A stretch of 64,000 nt of DNA. Source: a virus. Taxonomy: Duplodnaviria > Heunggongvirae > Uroviricota > Caudoviricetes. Below the pieces are notes generated by a model. That model did not search any database. It saw nothing but the letters and a program-made list of their open reading frames with translations, and had not been told where the DNA came from. A program made the position numbers and the translations under genes. Positions 31,001 through 64,000 of this stretch are shown here, in pieces; the first letter of the stretch is position 1, and each line of letters opens with the position of its first letter. The stretch lies in IMG/VR virus record IMGVR_UViG_3300021255_001602, positions 1-64,000 of that record; one strand, written 5' to 3'.

Positions 31001-31077
31001 CGCGGGATGGAGAAGTTCGGTTTAACTCACTAGCTTCATGGGCTAGAGATTCGGGGGTTCAAATCCCCCTCCCGTTA
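31001..31077 (+). tRNA. tRNA with anticodon CAT (Met / possibly Ile2-lysidine type)
   Basis: cloverleaf: acceptor CGCGGGA/TCCCGTT (pos1 mismatch), anticodon stem CTAGC/GCTAG with loop TTCATGG, T-arm GGGGG-TTCAAAT-CCCCC; boundaries +/-2 nt. Confidence 0.55.
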
Positions 31078-32227: not shown

Positions 32228-34005
32228 TGGCTGAATTTATAGAAGAAACTAGAAGTATAGATGAAGTTAAAGAAGAAAAGCATAACAAATTAATGAAAAC
32301 CATTGCTTGGCGTGCTGGATATTATCGAGCAAATCCACAAAGATTTGTAAAGGATGTATTACAATTTAAAACTATTCGGTTGCGATGGTTTCAGGAATTA
32401 TTATTATGGGCAATGATGCATAATAATTACGTCCTCTACTTAGCCGCAAGGGGTCAGGGCAAAACTATGTTAGTTGCACTCGTGGCAACAATATATTGTA
32501 TTTTATATCCCGGTTCTAAAGTTATAATAACAGCACCTGTACTAAAACAGGCCGCTGAATCGTTGTTAAAAATTAGAGATGAATTTTGTCCCCAAAGTAG
32601 CTTTTTAAGAAATGAAATAGCTAAAATCAGTATAGGGCAGAATGATGGTTCAGTATATTTTAAAAATGATAGTTGGATTAAAATAACTACTAGTACAGAC
32701 AATGCACGTTCCGCTCACTGTAATATTATTATAGTAGACGAATATGTTAAAACAGATAAACGTATTATTGATAGTGTTATTCGTGAATTTTTGAAAGCCC
32801 CTCGATCACCGGGCTACCTTAGTAAACCAGAATATTCCCATCTTCAAGAACGTAACAAAGAAATATATATGTCTTCTGCATGGTTAAAATCAAGCTGGGG
32901 TTATGATAAATTTTTAGCGTATTTTAAAAACTTCATTAATCCAAAAAGAAAATATTTTGTTTGTGGTCTTCCTTATCAGATATCTATTCTTGAGGGTTTA
33001 TTAATGAGAGATGAAGTTGAAGACCGTATGTCAGAAGACGATTTTGATGAAGTTGCTTTTCATATGGAAGATGATTGTTTTTGGTATGGTGATAATGAAG
33101 GTGGTGTGTTTAGTTTTGATGAAGCCACCCGACTTAGAGTAAATAAAAAAGGATTACTACCTTTGAAGTTTTACTCTAAAGATAATCCTGTACCATTGGC
33201 TCCTAGAAATGGAGAACGTATATTGTCAGTTGACGTTGCACTTATGGCTTCTACTAAAAAGAAAAAAAATGACGCCGCCGCTATATATATTAATGACGCA
33301 ATTAAAACTACAGATACAAAATATAAAGCCCACTTTATATTTGGTGATACTTTTGAGGGACTTACTACAGATGAATTGGCTTTAATTGTTATGAGATATT
33401 TTTATGAGTATGGTTGTACATATTTAGTACTTGATACCAACGGGAGTGGCTTAGGAGTTTATGATTATATTATAAAAGACCAATATGATCCTGAAACAGG
33501 GAATACTTATAAAGCTTTGACTTGCTGTAATAATGATGAAATGGCACAGCGTTGTAAAGTTCGTGATGCTAAAAAAGTTGTTTATTCTGTTAAAGCGTCA
33601 GCCGATTCTAATAGTGTATATTGTCTCTTACTCCGTAATGCAATTCAGAATGGCAATGTTGATTTCTTAGTATCTGAGAATGATGCGGAAATATATCTTT
33701 CTAAAGAGTTTAAAGGCTATAAGAAATTAACCGTATATGAAAAGGGTGAATTGCTTAAATCATATGCAGAAACATCTGCTGCTATTTTTGAGTTGGTAAA
33801 ATTAAAAGGCTATTATAAAGATGGCAAACTTAAAGTGTATGAGACTAAAGGTAATCGAAAAGACCGTTACTCTTCTCTGTCATATAATTACTGGTGTATG
33901 AAACAATTAGAATTGCAATTAAAACCTAATATGTCTGATGTGGAACAGCTTGTATATAGTCTTCCTATTAGAAGAGGACGTACAAGAAATAATAGAGTTA
34001 TTTGA
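32227..34005 (+). CDS. terL: terminase large subunit
   Basis: Walker A LAARGQGKTML, Walker B IIIVDEY, C-terminal RNaseH-like nuclease region; 592 aa. Confidence 0.8.
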   Translation: MAEFIEETRSIDEVKEEKHNKLMKTIAWRAGYYRANPQRFVKDVLQFKTIRLRWFQELLLWAMMHNNYVLYLAARGQGKTMLVALVATIYCILYPGSKVIITAPVLKQAAESLLKIRDEFCPQSSFLRNEIAKISIGQNDGSVYFKNDSWIKITTSTDNARSAHCNIIIVDEYVKTDKRIIDSVIREFLKAPRSPGYLSKPEYSHLQERNKEIYMSSAWLKSSWGYDKFLAYFKNFINPKRKYFVCGLPYQISILEGLLMRDEVEDRMSEDDFDEVAFHMEDDCFWYGDNEGGVFSFDEATRLRVNKKGLLPLKFYSKDNPVPLAPRNGERILSVDVALMASTKKKKNDAAAIYINDAIKTTDTKYKAHFIFGDTFEGLTTDELALIVMRYFYEYGCTYLVLDTNGSGLGVYDYIIKDQYDPETGNTYKALTCCNNDEMAQRCKVRDAKKVVYSVKASADSNSVYCLLLRNAIQNGNVDFLVSENDAEIYLSKEFKGYKKLTVYEKGELLKSYAETSAAIFELVKLKGYYKDGKLKVYETKGNRKDRYSSLSYNYWCMKQLELQLKPNMSDVEQLVYSLPIRRGRTRNNRVI

Positions 34006-34015
34006 GGAGGTGCAT

Positions 34016-35608
34016 ATGGCACGTAAAAGAAGAAAAAATCGCAATGTGTCGAGCACAGCCCAGACACGAGAGTCAATTAATACTCAGCATGGAGTAAAGA
34101 CAGTTTCAGAATTACAGTCTTTTTATAATGATAATTATAACAAGATAAAGAATTTCGAAGCTGCTGAGAATTCATTTAAACAAATTACAGATGTGACTAA
34201 GAATACCAGAAAAGCAATTCCTACGTTTAATAAGGAAAAACTTCTTACTTATTTAAAGAATATCAGTAATAATGAAAAGAACCTCAGGAATCTTTCTTGG
34301 TATCTTTATTATAGGTCACAGATGTATAAGAAACTTATTAATTATAATGCGACTATGTTTGAATTGGATGCAAGGCGCATTATACCAAATTATGATGTAA
34401 CTGCTAATACACAAAATGATAAGAAGATATTAAAAGAATATGCTGAAACAGCTAAATTTATTGATAGCCTTGATCTTCAACAGAAATTCTTAATGATATA
34501 TCTTATCTGTTTTCTTCAAGATGTGTTTTATGGCTGCGCATATTATGACGATAATGGCCTGTTTATTCTTCCACTTGATCCTGATTATTGTAGGATTGCG
34601 GGTAGATTTGCAAGTGGTGATTTCGCCTTTGCTATGGACATGTCATATTTTACAGGAACTTATAATTATTTATTAGAGTATTGGGGTGAACCTTTTGAAA
34701 GTATGTATCGTCAGTATGAATCTGGTGGTGATGATTTTAGATGGCAGATATTTCCAGAAGAATATACTGTATGTTTAAAATTAAATACTGAAGACTGGAG
34801 AGTTATTGTCCCATATTATTCTGGTTTATTTGCAGAATTAATTAATCTGGAAGATGTTAAAGATTTTCAAGCTATTGCAGATGAACAGGATATTTATAAG
34901 TTAATCTGGTTAGAGATGGAAACTATCTCTGGCAGTAAAAATATAGACGACTGGAAAGTTGATCCTGAGATTATTATTCAATACTTTAATAGAATGTGTG
35001 AAGAGGCATTACCTGATTATACTTCTGCTGCTATTGTGCCCGGAAAATTAAATACCATTGGATTTAGTGATAATGATGCTACGACTAATAGCAATAAAGT
35101 TACTAAAGCTACAGAAAATGTACTTAATTCTGGTATGGGTGGACAAGTACTGAATAGTATATCTATTACAGGTACAACTGGTCTGAAACTGGCAATGAAG
35201 GTTGATACAGAATTGGCAATCAGTTCTTTACTTGGACAGACTCAGGGATGGGTTAATAGATATGCAACTTATAATCTGAGTACACCTTGTAAAGTAGTGT
35301 TCTTCCCTATTAGTGCTTATACAAAAGAGGACTTTAGGAAAGAATTACTGGAGAATGGTACTTATGGTCTTCCTGTAAAACTTGCACTTAATGCGCTCAA
35401 TGGCATTAGTGAATATGAGTCATTAGCTACTAATTATCTTGAAGAAAATATTCTTGGTCTGTCTGAAAAGTTTAATAGTCCTCTTGCATCTAGTCATACG
35501 TCCTCTGGTAATAGTGATGGTGAGGTTGGTAGACCAGAGTCTGACGACTCAGATTTGAGCAATGACGGGGAAATTTCAAGAGAAAAAAGAGACAGATCAA
35601 ACGAATAA
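34016..35608 (+). CDS. portal protein
   Basis: ~530 aa directly after terL; RBS GAGGAGG; N-terminal basic segment (MARKRRKNRN), acidic Ser-rich C-terminus typical of portals; positional plus compositional. Confidence 0.6.
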   Translation: MARKRRKNRNVSSTAQTRESINTQHGVKTVSELQSFYNDNYNKIKNFEAAENSFKQITDVTKNTRKAIPTFNKEKLLTYLKNISNNEKNLRNLSWYLYYRSQMYKKLINYNATMFELDARRIIPNYDVTANTQNDKKILKEYAETAKFIDSLDLQQKFLMIYLICFLQDVFYGCAYYDDNGLFILPLDPDYCRIAGRFASGDFAFAMDMSYFTGTYNYLLEYWGEPFESMYRQYESGGDDFRWQIFPEEYTVCLKLNTEDWRVIVPYYSGLFAELINLEDVKDFQAIADEQDIYKLIWLEMETISGSKNIDDWKVDPEIIIQYFNRMCEEALPDYTSAAIVPGKLNTIGFSDNDATTNSNKVTKATENVLNSGMGGQVLNSISITGTTGLKLAMKVDTELAISSLLGQTQGWVNRYATYNLSTPCKVVFFPISAYTKEDFRKELLENGTYGLPVKLALNALNGISEYESLATNYLEENILGLSEKFNSPLASSHTSSGNSDGEVGRPESDDSDLSNDGEISREKRDRSNE

Positions 35609-43409: not shown

Positions 43410-43777
43410 ATTAAATAGCCACTTTATACGGTAACGTATATCGCTTATGTTGGTGAACATATATTTATATGGTGTGTAATTCACTTTTGGAATCGTAGGA
43501 AATGACGATGAAGAATTATGCTAACAGGGGAAGCCTAAGTTGTTTTAGCGTAGACAATATGGTAATCCTGTGCCAAGCCTATTTATATAGGAAGGTCAAA
43601 CGATCATCCCGAAGGCAGTGAAATTCTGCAACAGGAGTAGGGCTAAGTGAAATTCTTAGTGGGTGAGAATCCCTTAAATCGAAGTGCCAACTATCCATTA
43701 TAATAAATGGATAAAGATATGATCTATTCCCTAATAAATATTACGAAAGTAAGGGTGTATAAAGGATTTAATTATTG
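43410..43777 (+). mobile_element. candidate group I intron 1 in major tail protein gene (no ORF)
   Basis: P-like CAGGGGAAGCCTAAG ~43524, Q-like GGTAATCCTG ~43561, R-like GGTCAAACGATCATCCCG ~43590, block AGTGGGTGAGAATCCCTTAAAT 43658-43679, S-like AAGATATGATC ~43707; 19-nt exon ending in U plus omega-G at 43777 restores frame. Confidence 0.55.
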
Positions 43778-44400
43778 ATAGAATTTCCATGGGTTATGCC
43801 GAGAAATTTGATGGCACACCTCTTTATGTCCTGACTCAGCTTTCTGAGGCTTCTATTGAGATTTCTGCAGAGTCTCGTGACGCTGTTGATAAGGACGGTA
43901 CGCTGATTAAGCGTTTCTGGAACGCAAAAACTGGTGAGTTTACTGCGACTAACGCAATGCTCAACCTGAACGTTATGGCAGCTCAGTCTGGTAACGATGC
44001 TAATATCGCTACTGCTGATAATGTTATTGTCATGCCTAAGATTATCACTGTTAAGAGTGGTACTACTGTCGATCTGGAGGGCTTTGTTACTGGTAATCGT
44101 ATCAGTGTGAATGCTCTGGGTACCAATGGTGCTATGGGTAAGGCTTATACTCAGGGTACTGCTGCTTCTGCGACTGAGTTTGGTCTGAATGGTACTAAAC
44201 TGACTCCTCCTACAGATACAACTGAGGCTCAGTATGTTGTTAAATATGATCGTCAGGTTACTGAGGGTGTTGATATTCTTAACTCTGCTGACAAGTTCCC
44301 GGCTACTGTTCGTCTGACTCTCAAGGGTCTCTGTGTCGATCCCTGTGAGGCCGATGTGCTGCGCGCTTTGTCGCATATTTATAATGATTTTTTCGTTTAT
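43778..44400 (+). CDS. major tail protein, exon 2 (ORF track 43789..44409)
   Basis: KFDGTPLYVLTQLSEASIEISAESRDAVDKDG... typical of Firmicute siphovirus major tail proteins; no SD upstream of its ATG; exon boundaries approximate. Confidence 0.6.
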
Positions 44401-44700
44401 AATATGTAAATGACGATTATAGAGTAATCTATATACACTTGCACATCGTTAAAATAAAATAAGTGTCAATAACAGCTATATCAGGGGAAGCCCAGAGATG
44501 GGTAATCCTGAGGAAAGACTTGGTAATATTATCAAGAATCCGCAACGACTACAGGATAAGACAACCAATTGTTTTATCGAAGCTGTTGCCCACAAGAATG
44601 ATGTGGGATGATATATAGTCTGAACTCACGCAATAATCTAAATAAGAAACGTGAGAGATAGGTAGAAATTCCTATCCGCTATAGTAATATAGTCAGTACC
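44401..44700 (+). mobile_element. candidate group I intron 2 in major tail protein gene (no ORF)
   Basis: P-like CAGGGGAAGCCCAGAG 44482, Q-like GGGTAATCCTG 44500, S-like GATATATAGTCTG ~44612; same P/Q pattern as intron 1. Confidence 0.5.
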
Positions 44701-44894
44701 CAATAAGCACTGGGGAAAGTAACAGTTTGGTTTACATCGTGCTTCCGTCCTTCCAGCCTAGCCCTGAGACCACTATCGCTCTGAATAGTGATAATCCTAC
44801 TCTGGACTTCAACGGCAGCTTGCAGGTTGACTACTGCTCGACTGATAAGGCACTGTATCATGTTTACTATGCAACAGCTGATGCTGAGCAGTAA
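44701..44894 (+). CDS. major tail protein, exon 3 (C-terminal ...LVYIVLPSFQPSPETTIALNSDNPTLDFNGSLQVDYCSTDKALYHVYYATADAEQ*)
   Basis: stop-free, protein-like frame (open from 44688) ending TAA 44892-44894, not preceded by any start codon/RBS; start approximate. Confidence 0.5.
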
Positions 44895-45022: not shown

Positions 45023-46264
45023 ATGCGAAAATGTGATTTGACAAAGGTTCCTAAAATTCTGAAAAATGGTAAAGAAGCCTGTGATTGGAGAAAAACTATT
45101 GGATTAAGTATACCATTTGAGTATGATGGTTTAAAGGATAGTTTTAAAATTGTGGGCTTCGAATCAAGAGATAAAGTATATGTGATATATAGAAATAAAA
45201 AATATATGCTTTATGGGAAATATATAAAAAAAGGCAGAATTGCCAAAATATTTGGGCAAACAATAGAATGGAAATATGCTGAAGGTGATATAATTAAAGA
45301 TCATATTGGTTCACATGATAGAAATATATTAATAACCGCAAGAAAATACGTTGAAATAAATAATAATCCAAATAATAGAAATCATAAATATTATCAATAC
45401 AGATGTTTAATATGTGGATATGATTGCGCTATGGATGATTTCTGGGTTAATGAGGCAGATTTAAGAGACGGTAAAGGATGCGGTTGTTGTGCGGGGACTA
45501 AGGTTATTGTAGGTGTAAATGATATATCTACTACCATACCTTGGGCTGTTCCTTATATTGATGATATTAATTATGTTCATACACATACTAAGACCAGTAA
45601 TAAAAAAACTGATATGACATGTCCTATTTGTGGTTTTAAAAAGAAAATGTGTGTGAGCAATTTATATTTTCAATCTTTTGCATGTCCTAAGTGTTCTGAT
45701 GGGTTTAGTTATCCAGAAAAATTTTTTCTTAATATTTTAGAGCAAGTAGGGGTAAAATATAAGACTCAATTAAATAAATCTGATTTTGAATGGTGTGAAA
45801 AATATCGGTATGATTTTTATTTGCCAGAATACCATTGTATTGTAGAAACGAATGGCGCACAACATTATGAAGACGGATGGCATAAAATAGAACTGCAAAG
45901 AAAGATTGATAAACAAAAGAAAGAATTAGCTTTGCAAAATGGAATTAAACACTATATTGAGTTAGATTGTAGTCGTTCTGAAAAAGATTATATCATACAA
46001 TCTTTAATTAAATCTAATATACCATTTGATTATTCTAATGTTGATTTTAATAAAGCCGACTTAGCAGCACAAAAAAATGTGTTAATTGCAACTTGTAAAT
46101 TATATAAGAATAATCCTAATATGACTCTTGCTAATATTGCAGATGAATACCATGTTCATATTAGTACTGTGGTGCGATATTTACAGAAAGGGAGAGAATT
46201 AGGATTATGTGATTATCGAGAATCTTTAAAAGGTAATCATAAGAAACGAAACAAAGGAGCGTAA
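45023..46264 (+). CDS. free-standing homing-endonuclease-like protein (zinc ribbons plus PD-(D/E)XK-like core plus C-terminal NUMOD1-like HTH)
   Basis: CLICG/CPICG/CPKC zinc knuckles; YDFYLPEYHCIVETNGAQHY (D...E.T/K nuclease-like); C-terminal TLANIADEYHVHISTVVRYLQKGRELG HTH; located between MTP and TMP where HEGs often sit. Confidence 0.5.
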   Translation: MRKCDLTKVPKILKNGKEACDWRKTIGLSIPFEYDGLKDSFKIVGFESRDKVYVIYRNKKYMLYGKYIKKGRIAKIFGQTIEWKYAEGDIIKDHIGSHDRNILITARKYVEINNNPNNRNHKYYQYRCLICGYDCAMDDFWVNEADLRDGKGCGCCAGTKVIVGVNDISTTIPWAVPYIDDINYVHTHTKTSNKKTDMTCPICGFKKKMCVSNLYFQSFACPKCSDGFSYPEKFFLNILEQVGVKYKTQLNKSDFEWCEKYRYDFYLPEYHCIVETNGAQHYEDGWHKIELQRKIDKQKKELALQNGIKHYIELDCSRSEKDYIIQSLIKSNIPFDYSNVDFNKADLAAQKNVLIATCKLYKNNPNMTLANIADEYHVHISTVVRYLQKGRELGLCDYRESLKGNHKKRNKGA

Positions 46265-48904: not shown

Positions 48905-51900
48905 ATGGCTCAAGGTACATTTGAAGGTGGTACAGTTACAATAAGAGGGGATGCTTCCCAATTAAAGAACGAATTGTTAGAAGTTAGTGAACTGTTAACC
49001 ACGTTAGAAAAAAGTAAGGTAAAATTAAAACCCGAAATTGATGTAAAAGATATAAAAAATCAAATCAACAAATTAGGACAGTATATGGAGGGTAGATTTG
49101 GAGCACTTGATTTTAGTAAAGTATATTCTGGTTTAATGTCGAGTGCTCAAAAGGATGGTAATAGATTTGCTAGTCAATTAAGCAGTACTATACGCAGCTT
49201 GAATTTATTAGATCAAGCTGTTAAACCAGAAGATGTAAGTAAACTAGCAGCGGCTTCAGCTGATGAAATTTCTAATCTTGTTGATGGAATAAATGGATTA
49301 TCACCTAAAACCAAACCAACTAGTAATTTAATTACTAAGAGATTACAAGCCCTTTATGATAAATATCCTAATGGTATCGAAGGATTAGGTGGTTCTGGTA
49401 AAGGTGGCGGTTTTGGTGCGTCTGAAGAAGCATTAAATAGAATTGGAGACACTTTAGATCGAATAGACGCTAATGTCCAAGGTATTACTGAATCTATTCG
49501 TAATGGTACTGGTACGTTAAAGGTAGCATCTCAAGACGCAGAAAAATATGCTGGAAGCATGGAAAAAGCTGAGACAGCGGCTAATAAGATGCAGACAGCA
49601 GTTGATAAGATGAAGCAAAAACAACAAAGTGTCAAAAATGCTTTAGAAGGTGAAAAAGTTGAAGCAGATTGGGATTGGACTTTACAGTATCTTAATGGGA
49701 CAAAAACGCCTACCTCGAAAAAGATTTCTAAACCTAAAACTCAAGTATCTGAAGCCCAACCTGAAATAAAAGTTTCTGCTCCTGATGTAACGCCGATAAA
49801 AAATGTGGTTAAAGCAGAAGAAGAGTTACATAATGCTGTGGAAGGTGCTACTGATGCTTTAAGAGAGCAGAATGACGCATTGCAAAACAACAGTATTTCC
49901 GTTCCTTCAACGGATAAAAAAGGATTAAGTTTTACAAAGGCAGTTGAACAAATTGGGGCACCAAAAGAAATTGCCAAATATTTAAAAGACCCGAAAAGTA
50001 TTAAGACCATTTTAAAAGGATTAGATGATGATAGTCTTAAAGGATTAGATATAGATCAGATACTTACTAATTTTTCAAATGATGATGATGCAAAATTAAA
50101 TAAAGCGTTAAATGATAAAATGAGAAGAGCTGCAATGTATGTTCAACAGATTGCGGCGATGTTCCCTGATGATTGGGAGGATATGTTTTCTGGTTTTTCA
50201 ATTTTTTCGCAAGGAGTAATGGGCAACTGGGCAGATGACATTGCTGCATTTTTTGAACAAACCAATGATTTAGTGGATGAAGCAACTGGTGATATTGATG
50301 ATAGTCGAGTAGAAGGATTGAAAATTACTTATGATAAATTAGTCGAAATAATGCAAGAATGGGCTGATTTATATAATACTGTTCGTCCAATGCTTGACAA
50401 AGGTATGTCTAAACAAGATATCGACACACGCTTAGATTTAATGAAGGGGTTTACTGAAGAAGATGTAAAAAGCAGTGAGTTGGGTACTTCTGGAACTGTT
50501 GATTTATATTCTCAAAAAATTGAGCAAACTCAACAACGACTTGATCAAATGGCTGAATTAAAATCATTATTAGATCAAGAAGAAGCGGCAGGACGAGTGC
50601 TGTCTGATCGGGAACTTATCTTTTTAAATAATTATCAAGAGTATGTAAATAAAGGCAACGCTATAGTTCAAAACGCAACAACAAGAAAAACCGCTTTAGA
50701 AAATCCTGAAGCTGTGCGTGAAGTGGCTCGTCAAAAAGTAGAACAAAGACAGCAAGAAAGTCAAATTAATTTTGAACAAGAAACATTAGAGGCAGCTAAG
50801 GCACAAGAAGAATTAGCAAAATCAGTAAGAGAGGCTAATAATGCCTTAAAGGAACAGAATGATGTTGGTAAAGATAATATCATGTATCACATGGGCAACT
50901 TGTCTGCTTCGAAAACTAAAGAAATTAGTCACCCATTTGGAGATGAATTTAAAGCGTGGTTTGAAGGGATTTATGATTCTGGAAGAGGTTGGGGTGATGG
51001 AACTGGTTTATATATGACCAGAAATAGAGATGAATACGCTCCCGAAATCGACCAGAAATCTTTAGAGAATTTTTATGCTATTGATACTTCAGGATTAAAT
51101 CTTTATGAAGCACACACAGAAGAAGCCGCTCAAGATTTTTACAATTTTATTCATCATATTGAACAATTATGTTTGCAAATTGGTACAGGAACAGAGAAAT
51201 TTGATGATAATTTAAAAGATATTGATTCAGAAAGTTTGTATACAGACTTTCAACGGGTATTTCCTAATATTCAGTTGTCATTTGAGCAATTTGATGATTT
51301 TATTACTAATATGTCTACAATGCTTGCTGATTCTGGACTTGATGAGAATGGTATTGCTGATGCTCAAAAATTAAATGCTTTTAAACAGAAATTCGGCAGC
51401 GATGATATAAAAACACGATTCCTTAAAATGCTTGGATATCAAGGTACAGATTTAAGTGGCACATCTTATGGTGGACTGCAATCAGGAAATGTGGTATTTG
51501 ACCCATTGGATAAAAATCGTATTATTGCTCAAGGTAAAAATATTGAGCAAGTTGCCCAAGAAGCTGTACAAAAAACAAAACAAGCATCAGAAGAAGCAAA
51601 GAAAAACGCAGATGATGCTAAAAAGGCGGCTGAAGAAGGTAAGAAAGCTGTAGAGGAAACTAAAGATAACAAAGAAAAAGCTGATGCCGTAATTCCTACT
51701 TCTGAATCTGCCCCTGATCTACAATCTACTATAGACAATGCTAATCAAGCAAATACCGAAACTGAAAAGCAGGTAATGTATGTAGAGCGTTCTTTCGATA
51801 CACTTAATAATTATTTAAGACAATATACTCAGGAATTAGCACAAAAGAAGCAAGAACGAGATGCGTTATTACAACAAATTCAATCTCTTCAAGATGGTAC

Positions 51901-54900
51901 TTTTGATACTTCTCAAAGGATGCCGGGTGCTACTACAACTTTTGATAGTGCAATAGAAGACAGTGGGCAATCAAGAGAAGACTTTTTGAAAGGAAAATTA
52001 GAATACGATACTCAACAATTAGAAACTATTGAACAACAGATCATAAAGAAACAGGCTCAAGTATTGCGTGTTAATAAAGAACATGCTGAAGTCGAGGAAT
52101 TAGTAAAGCAAGGATATGATATACAAGAAAAACAAAAGCCAGTCAAAAAAAATAAAAAAGGTGTTATTATTACTCAAGTAAAAGATGAAATTAAAGCTGA
52201 AGAAGATGATATCAAAGAAGCAGAAAAGATAATTGAAGAAGAAAGACAAGAAGCTGAAAGATTAGCGGCAGAAAAAAGAGCTAAAGACGAAGTTTTGCAA
52301 CAAATGATAAACGATGCCGGAGGGTCAACCAAAGGTCATAGTAAAAACAGTGAATTTAATTTTGGTGCTAAACTTGAGGGTGGTGAAACTGCAAGACAAA
52401 AACAACAAAGAGGTGGAGCGACTATTAGGGGTGGTAATCTTCCGAACTATAGCACACCGGGAACAAGAGGTGGTAATGCTAATACCGGTGTTTCAGGTGG
52501 AGCGCAACAAGTTAAAGTAGTTTATCAAGTAGAAACTACTTTGGAAGACGTTAAAGATACTAATAAACAATTAAAAGCTTTAAAAAAGACAAACACTGAA
52601 TTAACAACTTCAGCTAATCAAGCAGCTGACGCAATCCAGAAGGAAGCTGAAGCACTTAGCAAGATGGCTGAGACATTAACCACTATTGGAGAAATTGGCA
52701 GTAAAGTTGCGACTGTTAATCAAGAAATTAAAGATGTTACTACTAAAACTGTTAATCAGACCTTAACTCCTGAGCAATCCCAAATACCGACTAAACCCTT
52801 AACTAGGCCATCAGTAAAACCTAAAGCTACAGCAGTTAAAACATCCGATGAAATAAAAAAAACAAAAGAACAAATTGAACAATTACAAAAAGCAAAAGAC
52901 GATGCTGAACAGAACTTAAAGAGTATTACATTAGACGATTCCACATTTGATGTTGGCGAAAAATATCAAAAACGCAATGCTTATTCTCAAGTTAAACAAT
53001 GGGCAGATGATTTAAAAAAAGCGCAAGAAGAAGTTAATAGCTTAGGTAAAGATGCTGATCCACAAAAGGCACAAGAAGTATTAGACAATTACGATAAAAT
53101 GCGGATTGGTTTTTCTAAGGCATTTAAAATAGCAGACAATCTTGATGTTGGTTCTTCTAAAAATTTTGCAAAGCCAATGGAAGAATTTAAAGAACTGTAT
53201 CAGAATTTAGGAGAACCGAGTAGCGATTTTAAACAAGTCGAAGAACGATTCGCTCAGGCGTCCACTCAAGCTGCGGAACGGGCAAAAGCACAATTTGAAC
53301 AACAAAAGCAACAAGCTGAAGTAATAATGGCTAGATTGCAAGCACGTTTGGAAGAATTGCAATCTAAAGAAAAAACTACTGCCCCTGCTCCAGAAAAGCC
53401 GAAGGTAACTACTGAGCCGAAACCTTCTAAACCAGTTGAAAATAAACCTGATTTAGGCGGTAATCAGACAGGTAATGGTGTTCAAACTGAAGGTGATAAA
53501 GCCGTTGATGCAGCTGCTAAAATGCAAGAATTGGCTGATGCTAAAAAACAAGTAACTGAAGCTAATCAAAATTTAGCTCAGAGTGCTCAAAATACAACAA
53601 GTGCTCTTAATGGTGAAGGTGGGGCTGGTGCTAATGCGAGTAAAGCTTTTCAAGATCAGATTGATGCTCAGAAAAAGGCATTAGAAGAACAGAAAAAAAT
53701 AATAGAAGATCAGCAAAAAGCCATTGATGATTTACAAAAGAAACAAGAAGAGGCTACAAATAAAAAGATTGAAAATTTACAGAAAGAAAATGATGCTTTT
53801 ACTGCTCAACAACAACAAGATTTACAAAGATACAAGGATGCTGAATTACAGACCCAAATGATGCTTGCTCTTCAAAAACAAGCGGCAGAACAAGAGGCTA
53901 AAGTTCGTGAAGAGCAAGAAGCTAAAGCCGCACAAAAAGCTAAAGAGCAAGCAGAAAAGGCTGCTCAAAAAGCGCAGACCAAAGCTGATGATAAAGAATT
54001 AGCACAAGCATACGGAAATTATGGTAAAGATTTTAATGCTGTTCTTAATGCGAAATCAATTCAGGAATTTGATACGGCTGTCGCTCATTTAACAGAAACA
54101 GAGCGTATTTTCTGGGATGCAAGATTAAAGAATATGGGTGATAATTATACCCCGAATTCTAATATGTATGCTCAAAACGATTTACCAGCGGATTATAAAA
54201 AATCTACCGAAGCACAAACTAAAGGTTTAAAACAGAGGCAAATGCAAATTGCCGCATTTACCGCTTCATTAATTGCTGAAGCAGAAAAACAGCAAGCAGC
54301 CTTTGAAAAAATGGATACGGCTTATAAAACTAATACACAAAATCCTGCAAAGGGACATCTTGATTTTATTACTAGCACAAAAGTAGATGATAAGCAAGCC
54401 CGGTCTTATATGTCCGCTGTAGACGGTGTTACAGAATCTTTACAGAAATTGCAGTCTGTTGCAGAGTCAATGAAAAATGGCACCTTTGATTTTGGTGATA
54501 CTAATGCTTTAAGAGAATTGCTTGAGTTGCGCCAAACTTTAGATTCTCAAATGAGTACGCTAAAAGTCGAAGATAAAGGTTATAAGACTGCTCAATCCGA
54601 ATTAGAGGCAAATGCGAACAAGACTGCTGAAGGTTTAAAAAAATCACTTTCTGGAGTCGCGGATCAAATTGAAGGTATTCAAAAAAAGAGCAAAAAATTA
54701 ATTAATCCCGATCAAGAATACCAAGGACAGTTACAAGCGTCAGAGCAATTACTACAAGTAATCAAAGAACTTATTGCGGATATTAATAATAATCCTCTTC
54801 AGTTTATGGATGAAGGTAATGTTAAAGGGTTTAGATTATTAGTTGATGCAATGAAGGAAGATGTTGGTGATTTTCAAGATAGATTTGATTCTCAACAAGG

Positions 54901-56314
54901 TATTCAAGGACGTATCAACACTTATTTTACTAGTTATAAAGGTGCCTATACAAGCTTCTTTAGAGAAATAAAAGATTCCTTTAAGTCTCAGGCATTAGGC
55001 GAATTGCAGAATGAAATTGATCGTACATTTCAGACATTTGAAGATAGTATCACAAATCTTAATCGTGCTACTGGATTAAATCAAGGTGATTTTCTTAATA
55101 AAAATCTTAACACCAATGGTGGCAAAGCTACTGCTGGTCAGATTGAACAGCAACAAAAAATCAGAAATGCTATTGCTGAAAGTTATCGTGGATTAATTAC
55201 AGATATTTCTGATGAACTTACTAAAGTTCAAGACAGAATGGGTAACGTTTTAGGCGAAGGATTTTTAAGTCAGGATTACTTTAAGAATTTTGGTGAAAAA
55301 TTCACTGCTGGATTGGGTGATGCAAGTGAGTTTAAAGAATTTCAAAATAATGCACAAGGTGCTGTTGATTCATTAAATGAATTGCAAAAAATTCAAGAAC
55401 GCATGGCTAATGGCAGTCTTGATTTGACTCAACTAGCACCTGATAAATTAAAAGATCAGATTCAAGAAATTGTTAAATTATTTGCTGATCTTAATAAAAA
55501 TTATGCTGAAGTAGTTGAAAAGTCTAAGCAGTTTACTTTTGCTGATGTGGGGGATATTGAAAGACAAAGGGCGGGTATTACTCAGTTTATGAAGAGTAAT
55601 CCGGGTATCAGTGCTGATGCTAAAGCACAATTACAAGGATACTTTGATCAATTACAACAAGGAATAAGTCAAGCAGATTTTACAAAATTATCAGATGGAT
55701 GGAAACAAGTTGCGGATGCTGAACAAGCCGCTGGTAGGACTGGTGCTACATTTATGTCTGAACTCCAGACTCGTTTCAAATCCTTAGGCGCTTATCTCCT
55801 GTCCTTTGTTTCATTCTACAGAGTAATCGGTGTTTTCAAAGATGGTATTAATATTATCCATGAACTTGATGACGCTTTGACGGAAATGCAAAAAGTTTCA
55901 GATGAAAGTCTGAGTAGTTTAAGAGAATATCAAAAGAGTACATTTGATACAGCAAATCAGATCGGTACGACTGCGGCTCAGTTACAGACAAGTACTGCTG
56001 ATTGGATGAGGCTTGGTGAAGATTTACAAACAGCATCTCAATCTGCACAAACCGCAAACGTACTGTTTAATGTTTCTGAATTCGATAATATTAATGACGC
56101 AACAACTGCATTAGTTGCTATGAGTGCTGCGTATGCTGATGCGGAAGAAGGTATCGATAAGATGGACATCGTAGATAGATTGAATCTTATTGGTAATAAT
56201 TATGCAATAGCAACTGATGAATTGGCAACTGCTCTTCAGGATGGTGCAGCTGCATTACAAACAGCAGGGAATGATCTTGATGAAGCTATTGCTTTGACAA
56301 CAGCAGGTGAGATT
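48905..56314 (+). CDS. tail tape measure protein, exon 1 (~2470 aa; long coiled coils, Pro/Thr/Lys-rich linkers, conserved TMP core begins at its end)
   Basis: giant K/E/Q-rich coiled-coil ORF; C-terminal ...AMSAAYADAEEGIDKMDIVDRLNLIGNNYAIATDELATALQDGAAALQTAGNDLDEAIALTTAGEI resembles TP901-family TMP core; reading frame then hits a stop inside intron-like sequence. Confidence 0.6.
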
Positions 56315-56947
56315 AAATTGCCTGAATGCGTGGCGACACGTATATAGAACACATCTAATTGCTGGAAATCCTATTAGGATAATTAGCAGCGAAGCCATAT
56401 TGACATATGTTAATTAAAACGTATAATATATATGGAACGTTCAACGACTATTCCCGTGTCGGGGTTAGGACTAGAGAATACATATCCTAATCAATAGAAG
56501 TACGGCTCAATCGCAAATGGAGTGGGTGAGAATCCCTTAAATGGAAATGGTGTGCTCTCTTTTATTAAAGAGATGAAGATATAGTCTGATCCTACGAGTA
56601 ATCGTAGAAACAATATGTATTAATTAAATAAGCATATTAACAGTTATATCTTGCGAATATAACTGAACGTAAATGAATTTAATCACACAAGACGCCTCTA
56701 AAACGGGTAAACATTTGCCCTTAGATAACTATATCGGTTAAAAGCTGGGGACAGTTAAGACCGAGGTAACTCATAATAAAATGAGGCACCGTAGAGACTG
56801 CGGGGTATTATAGGTAACTATAATGCTGAAGTTATCCGTTATTTTAATAACGTAATATACAGTCCGATCTCACGATATAATCTAATTAATGAAACGTGAG
56901 ACATAGCCGGAAATGACTATGCGCCATATTTATATGGTCAGTAAGCG
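56315..56947 (+). mobile_element. candidate group I intron (TMP intron 1, ORF-less, ~630 nt)
   Basis: R-like GTTCAACGACTATTCCCGTG ~56446, 49-nt block AGTACGGCTCAATCGCAAATGGAGTGGGTGAGAATCCCTTAAATGGAAA 56499-56547, S element AAGATATAGTCTG ~56576; in-frame rejoining at U 56314 / G 56947 gives ...TTAGEI|KAESNRMKGVRTIALRL. Confidence 0.55.
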
Positions 56948-57280
56948 AAAGCTGAAAGTAACAGAATGAAAGGTGTTCGTACAATCGCCCTTCGTTTAAC
57001 AGGTACTAAAGAAGCGGCAGAAGAACTTGAAGAAATGGGTGAAGATACCTCTGACATGATAGTATCTCAATCCAAAATGCGTGAACTGATTATGAATGCT
57101 ACAAAGGTAGCTTCAAATAATTACAAAGGATTTGATATACAAGACGAGTTAGGTCGCTACAAATCAACTTATGAGATAATGTTGGGTCTCTCCCAAATCT
57201 GGGACGAAATTCGTCAAGCCGACCTTAAAACAGGCGATAACCGTCAGAACTTATTGCTTGAATCAATTGCAGGTAAATTT
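56948..57280 (+). CDS. tail tape measure protein, exon 2 (ORF-track 56966..57340 region; ...GVRTIALRLTGT...LLLESIAGKF)
   Basis: TMP-core-like sequence continues in frame with exon 1; no RBS; ends in intron. Confidence 0.55.
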
Positions 57281-58864
57281 TTGCCTGAAATATATGGAAA
57301 CATATATTTTAGAATGCGTTTAAATGCGTTGATTACCTAAAGCCTTATGCCACAATATAGGAGAAATCACTATATGAAGGATTAACAAGTTAAGGATGAT
57401 ACAATGGTTAATTCGCAGCGAAGCGCCTAAGTATGTTTTAATTAAATATATATGGTGAACGTTCAGAGACTATCCCCGTGTAGGGGTCTTAATAGACCAA
57501 TAGGAGTACGGCTCAATCGCAAATGGAGTGGGTGAGAATCCCTTAAATGGAAACAGCGCATATCCTAACAGATCAAGCTGAGGATAAAGAAATAGTCCGT
57601 GCTTGTGTGAAAGCATAAGAATAATGAATATTAATAGACAAGGAGCAATTATGGCAACAAGAATTTCAAAAGAATTAATTCAAATAATGTATGAAAAATA
57701 TGATAGTGGAATGACTATTGTTGATATATCTAAAGAAACAGGTGTAGGACAAGATACTGTTCGTAAATATATACGAAAAAGTGGACGCAAGCGTAGACCG
57801 TCAATAGAAAAACGGATCGGAGAAGAAGGAATTAAACAGATATGTAATTTATATACTCAAGATGCAATGGATGAGATACGTAGGCTATATCCTGATCTTA
57901 CTAAACAGCAAATATATAGCATTGCCAGTCGGCATCAAGTTAAAAATACTAATTATTTTTGGAGTCAAGAAGAGGTAGAATTTCTAGTTAATAATTTTGG
58001 CATTCTGTCTTATGATGAAATAGCGGCTCATTTTAATAATAGACATAACGTAAAAGCTATATCTACTAAAGCTATAAAACTTGGATTAACGACCTCTCAA
58101 CATTGGACTAAAGAAGAAGAGGATATTATAATTAAATATTACCCTCATATTCCATTAAACGAGGTGTTACAAATGCTTCCTCGCAGAAGTGCAAATGGTT
58201 TAAAGATACACGCTCTAAAAATGGGTGTTAAAGGGCTACAATATCTTTCTGAAAAATATTCAGATGAACAAAAACAATTTATTCTCGATAACTATGTGCT
58301 AATGTCTGACGAAGAAATTGCAAAAGTACTTGGTAAAACACCAGTTGGAATAAAAGAACAAAAACGGAAACTTGGCATTTATCAATTTAATAAAGAATAT
58401 CAAGGGTATGAAAGTTTGAGTAAATTACTTAGAGGTCAAATATCGACTTGGAAAAGATTAAGTTGTGAGCAGTGTGGTTATCAATGTGTTTTAACTGGGT
58501 CTAAAAACTTTGAAATACATCATTTATATAGTTTCAATAAGATATTGCAAGAAGCATTTGAAAGATGTAATGAACAAGGACTATTAAAATCTTATAATAT
58601 AGAAGATTACACCAAAGAAGAGTTGGATGTTATTATTCAACTTTTTTTAGATATACACGAAACCTATCCTTTAGGCGTATGTGTTGAAAAAGACTTACAT
58701 AAATTATTTCATGATATTTATGGTACAGGTGGCAATGTGCCAGAACAATGGGATGATTTTGTAAACAGATATAAAAAAGGTGAGTTTAATAATGTAAAAG
58801 CATCTTAGTTAATATTCATTATTAGGTAGATTTGCGACCTACCTTAACATTTCAAAAAAATAGG
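57281..58864 (+). mobile_element. candidate group I intron (TMP intron 2, ~1.58 kb) carrying an HNH homing endonuclease
   Basis: R element GTTCAGAGACTATCCCCGTG ~57468, identical 49-nt block 57505-57553, S element AAGAAATAGTCCG ~57590, then HEG ORF; exon 3 frame open from 58826. Confidence 0.55.
57651..58808 (+). CDS. intron-encoded HNH homing endonuclease with multiple N-terminal HTH repeats
   Basis: C-terminal CEQCGYQCVLTGSKNFEIHHLYSFNKILQE...H = C-x2-C...HH...N...H HNH motif; N-terminal repeated helix-turn-helix-like segments; ATG 57651 with AAGGAG RBS. Confidence 0.7.
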   Translation: MATRISKELIQIMYEKYDSGMTIVDISKETGVGQDTVRKYIRKSGRKRRPSIEKRIGEEGIKQICNLYTQDAMDEIRRLYPDLTKQQIYSIASRHQVKNTNYFWSQEEVEFLVNNFGILSYDEIAAHFNNRHNVKAISTKAIKLGLTTSQHWTKEEEDIIIKYYPHIPLNEVLQMLPRRSANGLKIHALKMGVKGLQYLSEKYSDEQKQFILDNYVLMSDEEIAKVLGKTPVGIKEQKRKLGIYQFNKEYQGYESLSKLLRGQISTWKRLSCEQCGYQCVLTGSKNFEIHHLYSFNKILQEAFERCNEQGLLKSYNIEDYTKEELDVIIQLFLDIHETYPLGVCVEKDLHKLFHDIYGTGGNVPEQWDDFVNRYKKGEFNNVKAS

Positions 58865-61800
58865 GCGTCCATAGCCAGCAGTATCCTGCAAAATCCAGAT
58901 GTTCTTCAATCCGTTTATGAAGACTCTTCCACTAAATCCGCAGGTTCTGCACTGGAAGAAAATCAGAAATATTTAGATAGTATCTCAGGTCACCTTGCAA
59001 AACTCCAAAATGCTTGGCAAGAACTTTGGGCAAATGCTGCTAATCGTGATGTCATCAACATGTTCATTGACTTAGGCACCACAATCCTTAACTTAATCAA
59101 CGATGTTGGTGGACTTCAGTCTGCTTTTACACTCCTTTGGGGTGGTGCAATTGTTAAAGGATTAGCAACAGCCGATAGCTGGTTAGTTAAATTTGTCCGT
59201 GGGTTAGATGCGGCTAAGGCATCAAGCCAAGGTTTGGGGAATACATTAAGTAATATATTTACTAATTTAGCTGGAAAAACTGATTCTAATAAAGAAACAC
59301 GTTGGAAAGGGCTTGCTCAGATTCAAAAGGATCGTGAAAACGCAAGTCAACAGGCTACTCAAGCTGTAGATAATGTATCTGAAGCAGCGTCTGATATAAC
59401 CGCAAAAGCGGCTAAAGACGCCAAGACACAGTCTACAATTGCTTCCGCACAGGCAACTGGACAAGAAGTTGCAGCTCAAGGGCAATTAGTATCTTCAGAT
59501 ACAGAAGTCACGGGAGCTGAAGGTGCTGAAGCTACGGCAAAAGCAAATAGTACAGCTGAAAGCCAACAAGCGGCTCAAGCATATGTTCAAGAAGCCGAAT
59601 CTGCAAAATTAGCAGCTGATGCTATTAGAGATAAGGCAAATGCTGAAGTCGAATCTTATATTAAAGACGAAGCAAAAGGTCTTAGTCGCACAAAGAAGAA
59701 AGCACTTAAAGGTCAGCGTGGTGATCTTGTAAATGCTGATATCGAATTCTTAACAGATATCAGACCCGAAGCAGACATGGATTGGACAATGATGTATGCT
59801 GAAGGTTTTGAAGATGTTGCTGAAGCGGCTAGTAGTGTTGATGATGTTGTAGTTCAAGAAATTGTCCCGGCTGTTAATGGAGCGACACAACAAATCGGCC
59901 TTATGTCAGTTATGGCTGGTCAAGTTGGAGAAGGATTTGCGGGCATAGGCGCTAGTTTAGCTGGACTTGCTGTTAATCCTATGACGTGGCTTATTGGTAT
60001 TCCAATACTTATTAATGGAATAACTATGGGTATTTCCATGATAAAGAAGCATCAACAAGATATAATTGATCAAGCTCATGAAGCCACAACTTCTTGGGAA
60101 GAAACCAAAACTTCTCTCTCTGATTATGGAACACAATTAACAGAATTACGCACACAATTAAATCAACCAAATCTTTCTGATGCAGAACAATTAAATATTA
60201 AAGAACAAATATTTGATTTACAAAAGAAAATTACAGCTGAATATGGTAAGGCCGCTGAAGGAATAGATTTTGTAAATGGAAATTTAGACACACAATTACA
60301 AAAACTAAGAGAGATTAGTGTTGAAGAAGCTAGGTCTAATTTACGCAATAACAAAGGTTGGGAAAATGCTAGTAATAGGATGAATCAGACAGGTACATAT
60401 AGAATGCTTGTAGGTAATAATCCTAATGCAATCAAAGATGTAATTGGACAATTTGGAGATACTTTTAAATTAGACGAGCCATATAATGGTGGAAATTATT
60501 CTATCGAATTATCAGCGGAATTAAATGTTTATGATGCTGAAAAGAAACTGGAAGAATTATATGATAAATTATATGATTTAAAATCTTCAATGACAGACGA
60601 AGATTGGGCTAAGTCTGGATTAGCCACGAGTTTCCTTTCAGTATCGGCTCAATTACAAGAAATACAAAAAATAACAGATCAAAATAAAGCAGATGCTAAA
60701 GCATATCTAGAAAATAAGCTTATAGCAGAGCAAGATACTACAGGAAAAGATTTATATTATAATTATCAAAAAGCTACAGATGACTATAATAAAGCATTGC
60801 TTATTGGCAATCAAGAGGAAATTGCCAAGACAGAAACCGCATGGCAACGATTGAGTGATCAAAAAGATAAATATTTAAGTAAACATTCCGACTATACGCC
60901 TTTATTTAATGATATAGATGAATCATTAAACGAAACAGCGATTCGTTCTCGTGAATTATATAAGAAAATGACTTCTGAAGAGGGACGGACAGCAATAGAA
61001 GCAACTTTTGGTACTATTAAAGAGAATAAAAAAGTTGGAAAAGACACACAAAAAGAATTGATATCTGCCGCTAAAAACTATTTAAAAGAAAGAAAGAAAA
61101 TTGCTTCTGGTAAAGATGTTGGAGTTACTGAAAATATAGAAACATTACAAAAACTTGAAACGGCTGCACAAAAAGCTGACATTCCGATTAAATCTGTTGT
61201 AGATATGTTAAATAATACTAATTCTATTTCAGGTTTAAAAGACATGCTTGCAAATACGGCTGTTACAGCTGAAGATGTTAGCAATGCACTCATGGGTGCG
61301 AACGATGAGGCTAGTCGAGCAATAGCAGGATTGGCTCAAGATTTTGGTCTTGATTTACATTCTCCTAGAGAAGAGATTGATGCTTTTACAAATTATCTTG
61401 CTGAAATGGGTCATGTTGTGACTTCAACATCAAATACATCTCAAGATTCATTGAATGCTTTCTTTACAGACGTGTCTGGTAAAATTGATAAGCTTAATAC
61501 CTTGACATCCGTTGTTCAAAAAGGACTATCACAAACTGGATTAAGTTTTACAAAGCTTACAGATGAAAAAGGAAACCCGTTACAGAGTGAAGTATCTCAA
61601 ATTATAGACGCTTATAAAAATCTAGAGGGTTATGATCTTGGTTCTTTATTTGAAGAAACGGCGAATGGTATTCAATTAAACATGGACGCTTATCGGGCAT
61701 TGTCTCAGGAAGAAGAAGCCGAAACTAAGCGTCAATATATGCTTGAAAGGGCACGATTAGAAAACGATTTGGCGCATGCGGCTCCTGAAGATCAGAAAGC

Positions 61801-64000
61801 TATTCAACAACAAATCGTTGAACTTGATATGTTGTCTTCTGCTTATGATGGTGCTACTTCTGCGCTTCAAAAATATCTGAATCAACAAAATGCTGCTGAT
61901 TATGGTGATACCTATGCTATGTTGAGGGATACGACATTTAAACGTGGTGATGAATTGTTAAATCAGCATATGATTGGAACTGAAGAGTTCAGAAGTATCG
62001 CTCAATTATTTTCTAATAAATCTTTGGCGACTGCGTCCGTTGATGATGTTGTAGAAGCTTATAAAACTGGTACACAAAATATAAAGAAATATTTTACTGA
62101 AGACGCTGTTGACGGTGTGTATCAGTTTGCCCTTGATATAGAAGGATTAGGAGATAAATTCGGAAATGTCACTCGCTCTATTAATGAACAGGGTGAAGAG
62201 GTTTTTGATTTTTCGTATACAGATGAGCAGGTAAAGAATCTTGCCGATCATCTTCAGGTTTCGGTTGATGTAGTCGAATCGCTGTTTGACCAAATGAGAG
62301 CAACTGGAGCATCTATTTACAGATGGAGAGATGGTGGTTTTAATACTTTCGATGAATTAAATGCAAATATTAATGCCTCTAGAGACAGCCTCAAAGAATT
62401 AGCAAAAGAATCAAATGATCCGAATCTAGTGAACTTAGATATTGATGCCAATGATCTTAATACTGTTGATAAGTTAAAAGAACAAATATCCAGTATGGAA
62501 GATTTAAAAGCAAACTTAGATGTTAATTCTGATGCTTACAAAGAAGCAGAACGTTATATTGATGAGTTAAAAGCTAAGCTTAAAGAATATGAACAAGCTG
62601 CTGAAGATGCTAATAAGCCATTAACTGTAGAAGATTATTCTTCTGCAAATGATATGCTTGATCAAATGAAACAATCATTCGCAGAAATTGCCAAATATAA
62701 AAACGAGGATGGGACATATAAATTTAATATTGAAGAGGGTGGCAGCACTACCCTAACTGAATTAGCTAATCAGATTGCTTTATTGCCACCTGAGATTCAA
62801 GAGGAAATGAAATTTGAGGCTACCACAGACCCTGATGAAATACTTGCCCAAATGCAACAGAAATTTAATGAGCAATATGTTGATGTTCCGGTAGGTGCAG
62901 ATACAGCCCAAGCACAACAAGATGTTGCTCAAATGACAGACACTATGGCTGGCGCAGATGTTCCAATTGATTTATATGCTAATACTGGGCAAATTCAGCA
63001 ACAAGTTGACGAAGTAGCCAACTCATCTGGTACTGTAGATATTGATGCTCAAGTTACAGGCGATAAACCTCTCATTTTGCAATGGATTGATGGAATAAAA
63101 AGTACTCTTGTTATGGAGGCAGATGCTTCAGAAATAGATGCGGCTCGGCAACAGGCCGAACAACCATTAGAAGTTCAAGTGGGCGCTAATACGTCTCAAG
63201 CTCAAAATGATATTAATAATTTGGGAACAGGGGAAAACTCGCCCACAATTACACCACAGGTTGATTCTTCTCAAGCGAAAAGTGATTTAAACAACATTAC
63301 CAATAATGGTGAAACCACGATGATGCATGTTGATGCAGACACATCACAAGCTGACTCAAAGGTTGATGCTGTAATATCTAAAGTCACTTCCCCCATCACG
63401 GCAATCGTAGGCATGGAAGTTGAAGCGTCTGAGGTTGAAACTGCTCGTGCTAACGCTGAAAAGCCTATTGAAACTCCCGTAACGTTTAAAGCAACTAATG
63501 ATATGCAACAAGTAGCTAATGGTGCTGGTGCTCAAGGTGTTACAGCTACTAAGACAGAAAATGTTATTAAGAATGAGCAGACAAATGTAACCGTTAATGC
63601 AAACACTGGACAGTTATCTACTGCTCAGGGTGATATTGACAGATTTAAAGCTAATGATGGCGCATCTGTTAATATGTCTGTTGGCGTATCTGGTGTCGAT
63701 AGCGTTACCCAAGCTTCTGATAAGGTAGACGCTTTAGCGGCTAAAAATGGCAAAAAGGTTAACATTACTATTGGTGGTAATACGGCGGCGTTCAATAAAA
63801 CAATTACCAACGCAACTACTCAATTAAATACCTTAAATAAGAAAACGACTAATCCTGCTATCAAAGCTGATAACAGTAAATTAAAATCTGCTGTAAGCGA
63901 GGCTAAAAGTAAACTTGATACCATTAAAAGTAAAAGTATTACAATTAGTGCTCATAGTAGCGGTTTTGGTTCAATTCTTTCTGAATATAGACAACTAAAA
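58865..64000 (+). CDS. tail tape measure protein, exon 3 (partial; >1700 aa, runs off window end without stop)
   Basis: stop-free frame from 58826 to 64000; begins ...SILQNPDVLQSVYEDSSTKSAGSALEENQKYLDSISGHLAKLQNAWQELW (TMP-core-like), has hydrophobic segment (LMSVMAGQVGEGFAGIGASLAGLAVNPMTWLIGIPILINGITMGI) typical of TMPs; not in ORF track because no stop in window. Confidence 0.6.

Follow-up and report, generated by a model that had tools for sequence, protein, structure and literature searches.

Group I introns have been described at three sites in the tape-measure protein (TMP) genes of Bacillus cereus prophages, with related IA2 introns at two of these sites and a further intron in the tail-tube gene (Tourasse & Kolsto 2008, PMC2504315). 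In the related pair, TMP-IVS1 and TMP-IVS2, the core is better conserved than P1, P2, P8 and P9, and every site has its own adapted guide; a single site can also be occupied by different introns (PMC2504315). Here, we analyse a 64,000-nt stretch of a tailed-phage genome (Caudoviricetes; IMG/VR record IMGVR_UViG_3300021255_001602, positions 1 to 64,000; hereafter, the window), in which two group I introns of the TMP gene, denoted A and C, contain an identical 49-nt block. An initial annotation had taken this repeat to suggest recent duplication or ectopic homing of an intron within one gene. We find that the block most probably (roughly 78%) represents the conserved P7.2 domain of a group I subfamily (IA, Twort/td-like), to which A and C belong as distinct members, and not recent copying.

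In kind, the locus matches the B. cereus prophage TMP introns, here in an uncatalogued phage lineage. In both, several group I introns sit at different sites of the TMP gene, two of them form a related pair, and a tail gene is interrupted as well. The introns of the window pair are only about 55% alike overall, compared with 80% in B. cereus, yet their P7.2 is perfectly conserved, and they share one P1 guide and one 5′ exon hexamer, whereas the B. cereus guides are adapted. The window system also has more sites (eight in roughly 200 codons), and it includes a mini-exon of 33 nt and an intron that appears to lack the terminal G. In Staphylococcus phage Twort, three self-splicing introns reportedly interrupt one gene, and the Twort ribozyme is reported to show an IA2 architecture with a P7.1–P7.2 subdomain between P7 and P3′ (Landthaler & Shub 1999; Golden et al. 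2005; structure cited in PMC3984707). Family members such as AGUAGGGCUCAAGUGAGCUCGAAAC match what we take to be the Twort P7.2 frame; relative to that frame, P7.2 in the window subfamily would be enlarged to a three-way junction by an extra hairpin (H2) and a long loop in the other (H1). Related group I introns at different sites also occur in nuclear ribosomal DNA (rDNA), where, according to the summary in PMC3984707, they have been credited to reverse splicing (Bhattacharya et al. 2005). As in rDNA, one gene holds introns at several sites and the likeness of the targets is limited to the 4–6 nt that pair with the guide; in contrast to rDNA, the host is a phage protein-coding gene and the sites carry different families of homing endonuclease genes (HEGs). 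Reverse splicing is a putative route in both cases.

The repeated block as a P7.2 domain

The two introns and their copies of the block are as follows (L numbers denote related loci).

56309–56675, + strand: intron A, group I, IA-type, without a HEG; Rfam 79.4 bits; absent from L001 and L004
56499–56547, + strand: block copy 1, in intron A; exact 49-mer AGTACGGCTCAATCGCAAATGGAGTGGGTGAGAATCCCTTAAATGGAAA
57275–58855, + strand: intron C, group I, IA-type, with an open reading frame (ORF) in the P9.1 loop; Rfam 70.2 bits; intronless alleles read ESIAG-KNR-ASIA
57505–57553, + strand: block copy 2, in intron C; the same 49-mer, P7.2 domain

The verbatim repeat was confirmed at the coordinates given in the initial annotation: the 49-mer occurs exactly twice in the window, both times on the + strand, with no third copy in the window even when three mismatches are allowed and zero copies expected from shuffles. 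A 22-nt sub-block is found at three positions (43658, 56521 and 57527), the first of which is the shorter version that had been noted in intron 1 of the major tail gene. Both copies of the 49-mer lie inside matches to the Rfam group I intron family RF00028 (gathering score 50), which span 56299–56608 for A and 57264–57619 for C. In both Rfam alignments, the block lies in the unmodelled insertion between the R element, which contains the P7 5′ strand (56439–50 in A and 57461–72 in C), and the P3′ strand. In introns of subgroup IA, this interval is where P7.1 and P7.2 are located (PMC3984707). These extra helices, IA2-like, are present in both A and C as judged from the Rfam insertions and covariation, the IA-type assignment resting on a model of the P7-to-P3′ region. 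Whether the block forms strands of P7 or P3 had been posed as a check; it is neither, and the P3 strands that bound it show compensatory differences between the two introns.

To assess the structure of the block, we aligned 90 distinct versions of it from family members and counted pairs. The block is laid out as a joining strand, J7.1/7.2 (AGUA), a P7.2 three-way junction and a second joining strand, J7.2/3 (GAAA). The junction is closed by pairs 5:45 and 6:44 and holds hairpin H1 at positions 7–25, with an 11-nt loop, and hairpin H2 at 26–38, with a GGG/CCC stem and a UGAGAAU loop. Pair 5:45 is G:C in 53 versions, C:G in 37 and unpaired in none, pair 6:44 is G:U, and the stems of H1 (7–10/22–25) and H2 (26–28/36–38) co-vary; in the block shared by A and C, the base helix consists of C5:G45 and G6:U44. 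Altogether, 97.8% of cells are paired and 138 cells are changed on both sides. The observed covariation value was reached by none of 500 shuffles, and slid controls dropped to 31–57% paired. Because of its insertion position and the covariation in the 90 versions, we assign the block to the P7.2 peripheral domain, comprising a three-way junction and its joining strands.

Conservation of the block across the intron family

Family members were compared by nhmmer, BLAST and anchored regular expressions. At least 118 viral contig stretches contain the H2 19-mer, and at least 120 further stretches contain the R...AGTASGGC pattern, defined without H2; among the latter, the H2 stems co-vary and some members have no H2. 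The H1 20-mer was found in 44 metagenome stretches, including human-gut contigs, and in 8 bacterial genome stretches, mostly from gut Clostridia. Homology to TMP was present in 65 of the fetched loci, and most H1 carriers lie within TMP homologs. The exact 49-mer also occurs in introns of L261 and L269 whose flanks are unrelated to those of A or C. Among catalogued phages, the intron region matched only by short core pieces, in the Bacillus phages AR9, PBS1 and vB_BsuM-Goe21 (Goe21) and the Vibrio phage pVco-5; these introns hold a related, 84–87% identical version of the block in other host genes, such as that for the AR9 RNA polymerase beta subunit. An Rfam search at gathering scores recovered only 5 introns in 10 related loci, where many more emerged from exon alignment, so that search did not serve as a census.

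Within the TMP clade, the block recurs with no more than two differences in introns at four sites: S327, S340 (the site of A), S453 (the site of C) and S498, with one change at S327 and S498. Orthologs of A that are only 85% identical to it likewise keep the block with at most two changes. The comparison with these orthologs shows that the A lineage has long carried the block.

Separate histories of introns A and C

Introns A and C belong to a single structural family of group I introns, as had been proposed, and their homology reaches beyond the block: nhmmer aligns positions 69–317 of A to 57406–57636 (E 6e-24), so that similarity is not confined to the 49 nt. The flanks had been described as about 70% similar, which does not hold. 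Across anchor-defined segments, and scoring gaps as mismatches, the identity of A and C is about 0.5 in P1–P6, 0.62 in R + P7.1 + P7.2a, 1.00 in the block, 0.55 in P3′–P8–P7′ and 0.57 in P9, the range outside the block being 0.49–0.62. The R-like blocks were confirmed (56439–56464 in A and 57461–57486 in C), and in the flanks only the core elements R/P7.1 and S align well. When the block was masked, the sole BLAST match between A and C was 43 nt around R. The 5′ half of C is instead 78% identical over 219 nt to the intron of L237 and 76% identical over 142 nt to the S340 intron of L016. Whole-intron similarity between A and C does not rise above the family background and the two are not reciprocal closest relatives; on these alignments, A and C are shown not to be sisters.

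Orthologs of A occur in L012, L011, L013, L014, L006 and L244 at 85–95% identity, and those in relatives without C already hold the block. The P9.1 loop of A is closed and 33 nt long, and we found neither a remnant of the partner HEG nor orthology to it in this HEG-less intron. The A lineage exists both with and without a HEG: the ortholog in L006 encodes one of 383 amino acids (phrog_559, DUF4379), which is unrelated to the ORF of C. Intron A is thus not C without its HEG, and the proposal that one copy had kept the HEG and the other had lost it fails on this point.

Comparison with L012 separates the two introns further. Intron A is 95.1% identical between the window and L012 and its exons are 94.4% and 93.8% identical; A therefore evolves at the rate of its exons, which marks it as a long-term, vertically inherited resident. 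Intron C (57275–58855 against 7075–8655 of L012) is 100% identical, and its ORF 99.8%, amid flanking exons that are 93.8% and 90.6% identical. Such identity amid exons that are 91–94% alike indicates that C was recently mobile and arrived horizontally. It combines an ORF in a peripheral loop with this evidence of horizontal spread, as a mobile HEG-bearing intron does. The comparison indicates that the horizontal transfer of C was very recent and came with little co-conversion.

We therefore attribute the identity of the block in A and C to both carrying the subfamily consensus, and not to one having been copied recently. The subfamily would have its preferred home in the conserved core of phage tape-measure genes. 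Intron A would be an old HEG-less resident at TTAG|N and intron C a HEG-bearing, recently mobile intron at SIAG|K, the 5′ half of which may derive from a lineage that other phages carry at TTAG|N. More generally, where two group I introns have a long run of exact identity in common, that run can be an ultraconserved structural module and not a sign of recent copying.

Alternative explanations

Several observations weigh against conservation as the whole explanation of the repeat. The database scans needed exact seeds, so that the estimates of conservation carry an ascertainment bias. The block can change: its copies in C and in the C-like intron at S340 of L016 match at only 84%, and other contigs differ in the H2 stem. 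For lineages with about 55% identity elsewhere, a perfect match here lies toward the top of the range that conservation by itself predicts. The three-way junction did not emerge from minimum free energy (MFE) folding of either the block or the R-to-S regions, no z-score was significant, and the 49-mer in isolation folded no more stably than shuffled sequences (z = 0.1). The function that we propose for the domain is drawn from other IA introns: by analogy with these, it would pack against and stabilise the P3–P7 catalytic core, a role that would explain why its loops and junctions are near-invariant while P1, P2, P5, P6, P7.1, P3, P8 and P9 drift or co-vary. Finally, the H2-loop variant GAGA is common to the co-resident A and C of the window, L012 and L238, whereas GAAA is found instead in C of L234, which has no A, and in A of L011, L013, L014 and L006, which have no C, hinting at local exchange. 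As MFE folding failed to recover a junction that covariation supports, we set it aside as evidence in either direction.

The distribution of the GAGA loop is what would be expected if, after C arrived, a short gene-conversion patch between co-resident TMP introns had homogenised the block, in which case the identity would be recent although the introns are not recent copies of one another. The introns are clearly mosaic, as seen at S340 of L016 and in the roughly 87 nt shared by the S327 and S498 introns (see below), which would suit such exchange. However, L244 has an A with GAGA and no C, the co-resident introns of L013 and L014 differ in the block (GAAAAC versus GAAAAT), and the signal amounts to a single site in a GNRA-type loop at which A/G polymorphism is common across the family; the remainder of the block is invariant across lineages and thus uninformative. 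With one site and the counter-example of L244, we rejected the GAGA/GAAA pattern as proof of conversion, and we regard a conversion patch as unlikely. Far less room is left for a regulatory or protein-binding site, acting at the DNA or RNA level, in place of ribozyme architecture. Retention of loop and junction nucleotides at the sequence level and the lack of an MFE signal would fit such a site, but strong covariation at 9 pairs speaks for an RNA structural role, the block always lies between P7.1 and P3′ in the intron cores of many genomes, and shorter members, for example the Twort-like AGUAGGGCUCAAGUGAGCUCGAAA, keep the frame without H2; we judge this reading very improbable.

The original proposal, in which A or C is a recent duplicate or ectopic homing product within the gene, C having kept the HEG and A having lost it, draws on the 49-nt identity, the similar R/P7.1 blocks and the shared internal guide sequence (IGS) and 5′ exon hexamer. 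Against it stand the 50–62% identity outside the block, the closer relatives that each intron has elsewhere, A and C not being reciprocal best matches, and the presence of A before C arrived, together with the unrelated HEG of L006 and the exact 49-mer in otherwise unrelated introns; we consider it scarcely credible. The part of that proposal concerning a cycle of intron and HEG gain and loss is borne out by the comparison with relatives, in which both occur at the insertion sites. The conserved P7.2 three-way junction offers a defined target for structure–function work on IA introns.

Organization of the tape-measure gene

Exons were mapped against intronless relatives among viral contigs, giving the following arrangement around introns A and C.

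48905–56308, + strand: TMP exon 1, ending ...ALTTAG with codon GGT; 2480-amino-acid ORF, to which homologs in L001–L016 align
56676–56708, + strand: mini-exon of 33 nt, NLITQDASKTG; protein identical in intronless L001 and L004
56709–56968, + strand: intron B, group I, small, from a second family; precisely absent in L012
56969–57274, + strand: TMP exon KGVRTIALRL...LLESIAG, ending GGT; from tblastn exon mapping and alignment to intronless alleles
58856–64000, + strand: TMP exon starting AAAAATAGGGCG (KNRA) and running off the window; from homologs and intronless alleles

The spliced product (48905–64000) exceeds 4296 amino acids without a stop and leaves the window, and PF10145 (PhageMin_Tail) spans the intron-rich core. 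This length is exceptional for a TMP. Relatives L001 and L004 have no intron at any site and read ...ALTTAG NLITQDASKTG KGIRTIALRL...ESIAG KNR ASIA..., the absence of the introns being precise and the reading frame restored. The closest relative, L012, has A and C and precisely lacks B, so its mini-exon is contiguous with the next exon. A single intron had been drawn at 56315–56947; this interval in fact covers intron A, the 33-nt mini-exon and intron B. A megablast comparison of 25 kb of the window with the INPHARED phages gave no match, consistent with an uncatalogued phage lineage that, on these data, is without a close catalogued relative.

In intron A, P1 is formed, by inspection, by CAGGU (56304–08) with GCCUG (56320–24), P10 by 8 bp between AUUAAAUU (56312–19) and AAUUUAAU of the mini-exon, and the last base is G56675. 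Intron B has P1 CGGGU with GCCC and ends in G56968; its Rfam match is weak (19.9 bits, E 0.38), and it recurs in L002 and L003 at 97–99% identity. The mini-exon sits between group I introns of different families, and it must act as both the P10 partner of A (8 bp) and the 5′ strand of P1 of B. The locus thereby informs the minimum exon length between two group I introns, here 33 nt.

The open reading frame and 3′ end of intron C

The P9.1 stem of intron C (57620–34 with 58809–23), with 15-bp complementary arms, encloses one ORF:

57651–58808, + strand: ORF of 385 amino acids in intron C, putative homing endonuclease; from the ORF list and PHROG matches

Among PHROGs, the ORF matches phrog_323 (1.4e-25), HNH families matching weakly and in the DNA-binding part. 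It has N-terminal helix-turn-helix (HTH)/Myb-like repeats, and a C-terminal CxxC...HH motif was spotted by eye; among Pfam domains, no nuclease was detected, the only matches being sub-threshold ones to HTH domains. The ORF is unrelated to the HEGs at other TMP sites, and the only relative of it among viral contigs was on the L012 contig. The intron itself has orthologs in L012, L238 and L234/L260.

P1 of C, by inspection, pairs CAGGU (57270–74) with GCCUG (57283–87), as in A, the 5′ splice site being marked by a U·G pair in both introns, and a 6-bp P10 pairs AUUUUU (57277–82) with AAAAAU (58856–61). The intronless target reads GCAGGT|AAAAATAGGGC. Homologs, P10 and intronless alleles all place the start of the third exon at 58856, which would make the last base of the intron A58855 and not G: the intron would end ...UUUCAA (...CAUUUCAA), directly before AAAAAUAGG, which encodes the conserved KNR and forms P10. 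In distant intronless TMP genes, GCAGGTAAAAATAGGGC is uninterrupted coding sequence. The 3′ end is the same in three assemblies (window 58840–58870; L012 8640–8670; L260, reverse strand), including a 91%-identical ortholog. All other TMP introns examined end in G, and the guanosine-binding pair in P7 of C is the canonical G:C. An alternative 3′ splice after G58864 would be in frame and would remove KNR. It is possible, although we hold it to be rather doubtful, that C is a natural, actively spreading group I intron without a terminal guanosine which, if KNR is kept, is spliced after an adenosine (...UUUCAA|AAAAAU). The intron would then either ligate its exons after an omega-A or use G58864 and cost an essential protein three conserved residues, and both outcomes would be out of the ordinary in a phage intron that works. 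No usable account of a natural intron without a terminal G came out of the literature searches.

Insertion sites and intron movement

Relatives hold introns at eight sites within roughly 200 codons (S302, S327, S340, S351, S421, S452, S453 and S498), with presence/absence polymorphism at every one across L001–L016 and L234–L276. Two intron families are distributed over the eight sites, and L016 by itself holds at least four introns. The HEGs at these sites belong to several unrelated families; as related ribozymes carry unrelated HEGs, ribozymes and endonuclease genes appear to associate independently.

A GGT glycine codon, which pairs with the guide, precedes nearly all sites, and an A-rich (Asn/Lys) codon comes after most of them. 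The sites of A and C share the 5′ exon hexamer GCAGGT and the IGS GCCUG; in L237, the guide GGCUG faces the exon GCAGCT (P1 CAGCU with GGCUG), a compensatory change. The C-like lineage occupies S340 (L016 and L237), S453 (the window clade) and GCAGGC|AAA (L282), and these targets share the guide-matching hexamer only. Such hexamer-only likeness probably reflects guide-directed ectopic insertion; because GCAGGT at the sites of A and C matches their common guide, movement probably proceeds by P1 pairing, through reverse splicing or an equivalent process. The intron of L282 (6990–7420; Clostridiales metagenome-assembled genome (MAG) JAGZJZ010000014.1) represents a C-like intron at a further TMP site. 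There, the only frame-restoring boundaries with a terminal G put C in place of U at the 5′ splice site, so that P1 would be CAGGC/GCCUG with a C-G pair.

The introns themselves are composite. The S340 intron of L016 combines a C-like 5′ half with A-like features of P7.2a, and the S327 and S498 introns (L002 4425–4515 versus L013 8962–9052) match exactly over about 87 nt, from R across the block, with flanks that are 60–80% identical and P1–P6 at 60%. This identical segment amid P1–P6 regions that are 60% alike indicates mosaic evolution of the S327 and S498 introns. Paralogy at the level of the family and movement between TMP sites are supported. With two families, eight sites in about 200 codons and a match between GGT and the guide, the locus provides a data set on how introns choose new sites.

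Related elements elsewhere in the window

The major tail gene holds two further introns, at 43410–43788 and 44381–44725, the first of the block-bearing family and the second of the intron B family, with which intron B is homologous (nhmmer E 1e-13). Neither has an Rfam match, even at E up to 1. In the first, P7 is GAUCA/UGAUC and nhmmer aligns intron A to 43590–43730 (E 1.3e-6); its P7.2 block is as follows.

43636–43684, + strand: P7.2 block of the first major-tail-gene intron; closing pair G5:C45, H2 22-mer as in A and C, H1 different

The major tail gene is closely followed downstream by a free-standing ORF of 413 amino acids (45023–46264), which matches the homing/HNH PHROGs phrog_4538 and phrog_559 and is 33% identical over 87 amino acids to the HEG in the site-A intron of L006. 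A tRNA gene (31001–31077; Rfam RF00005, 46 bits) lies upstream of ORFs at 31130–35608.

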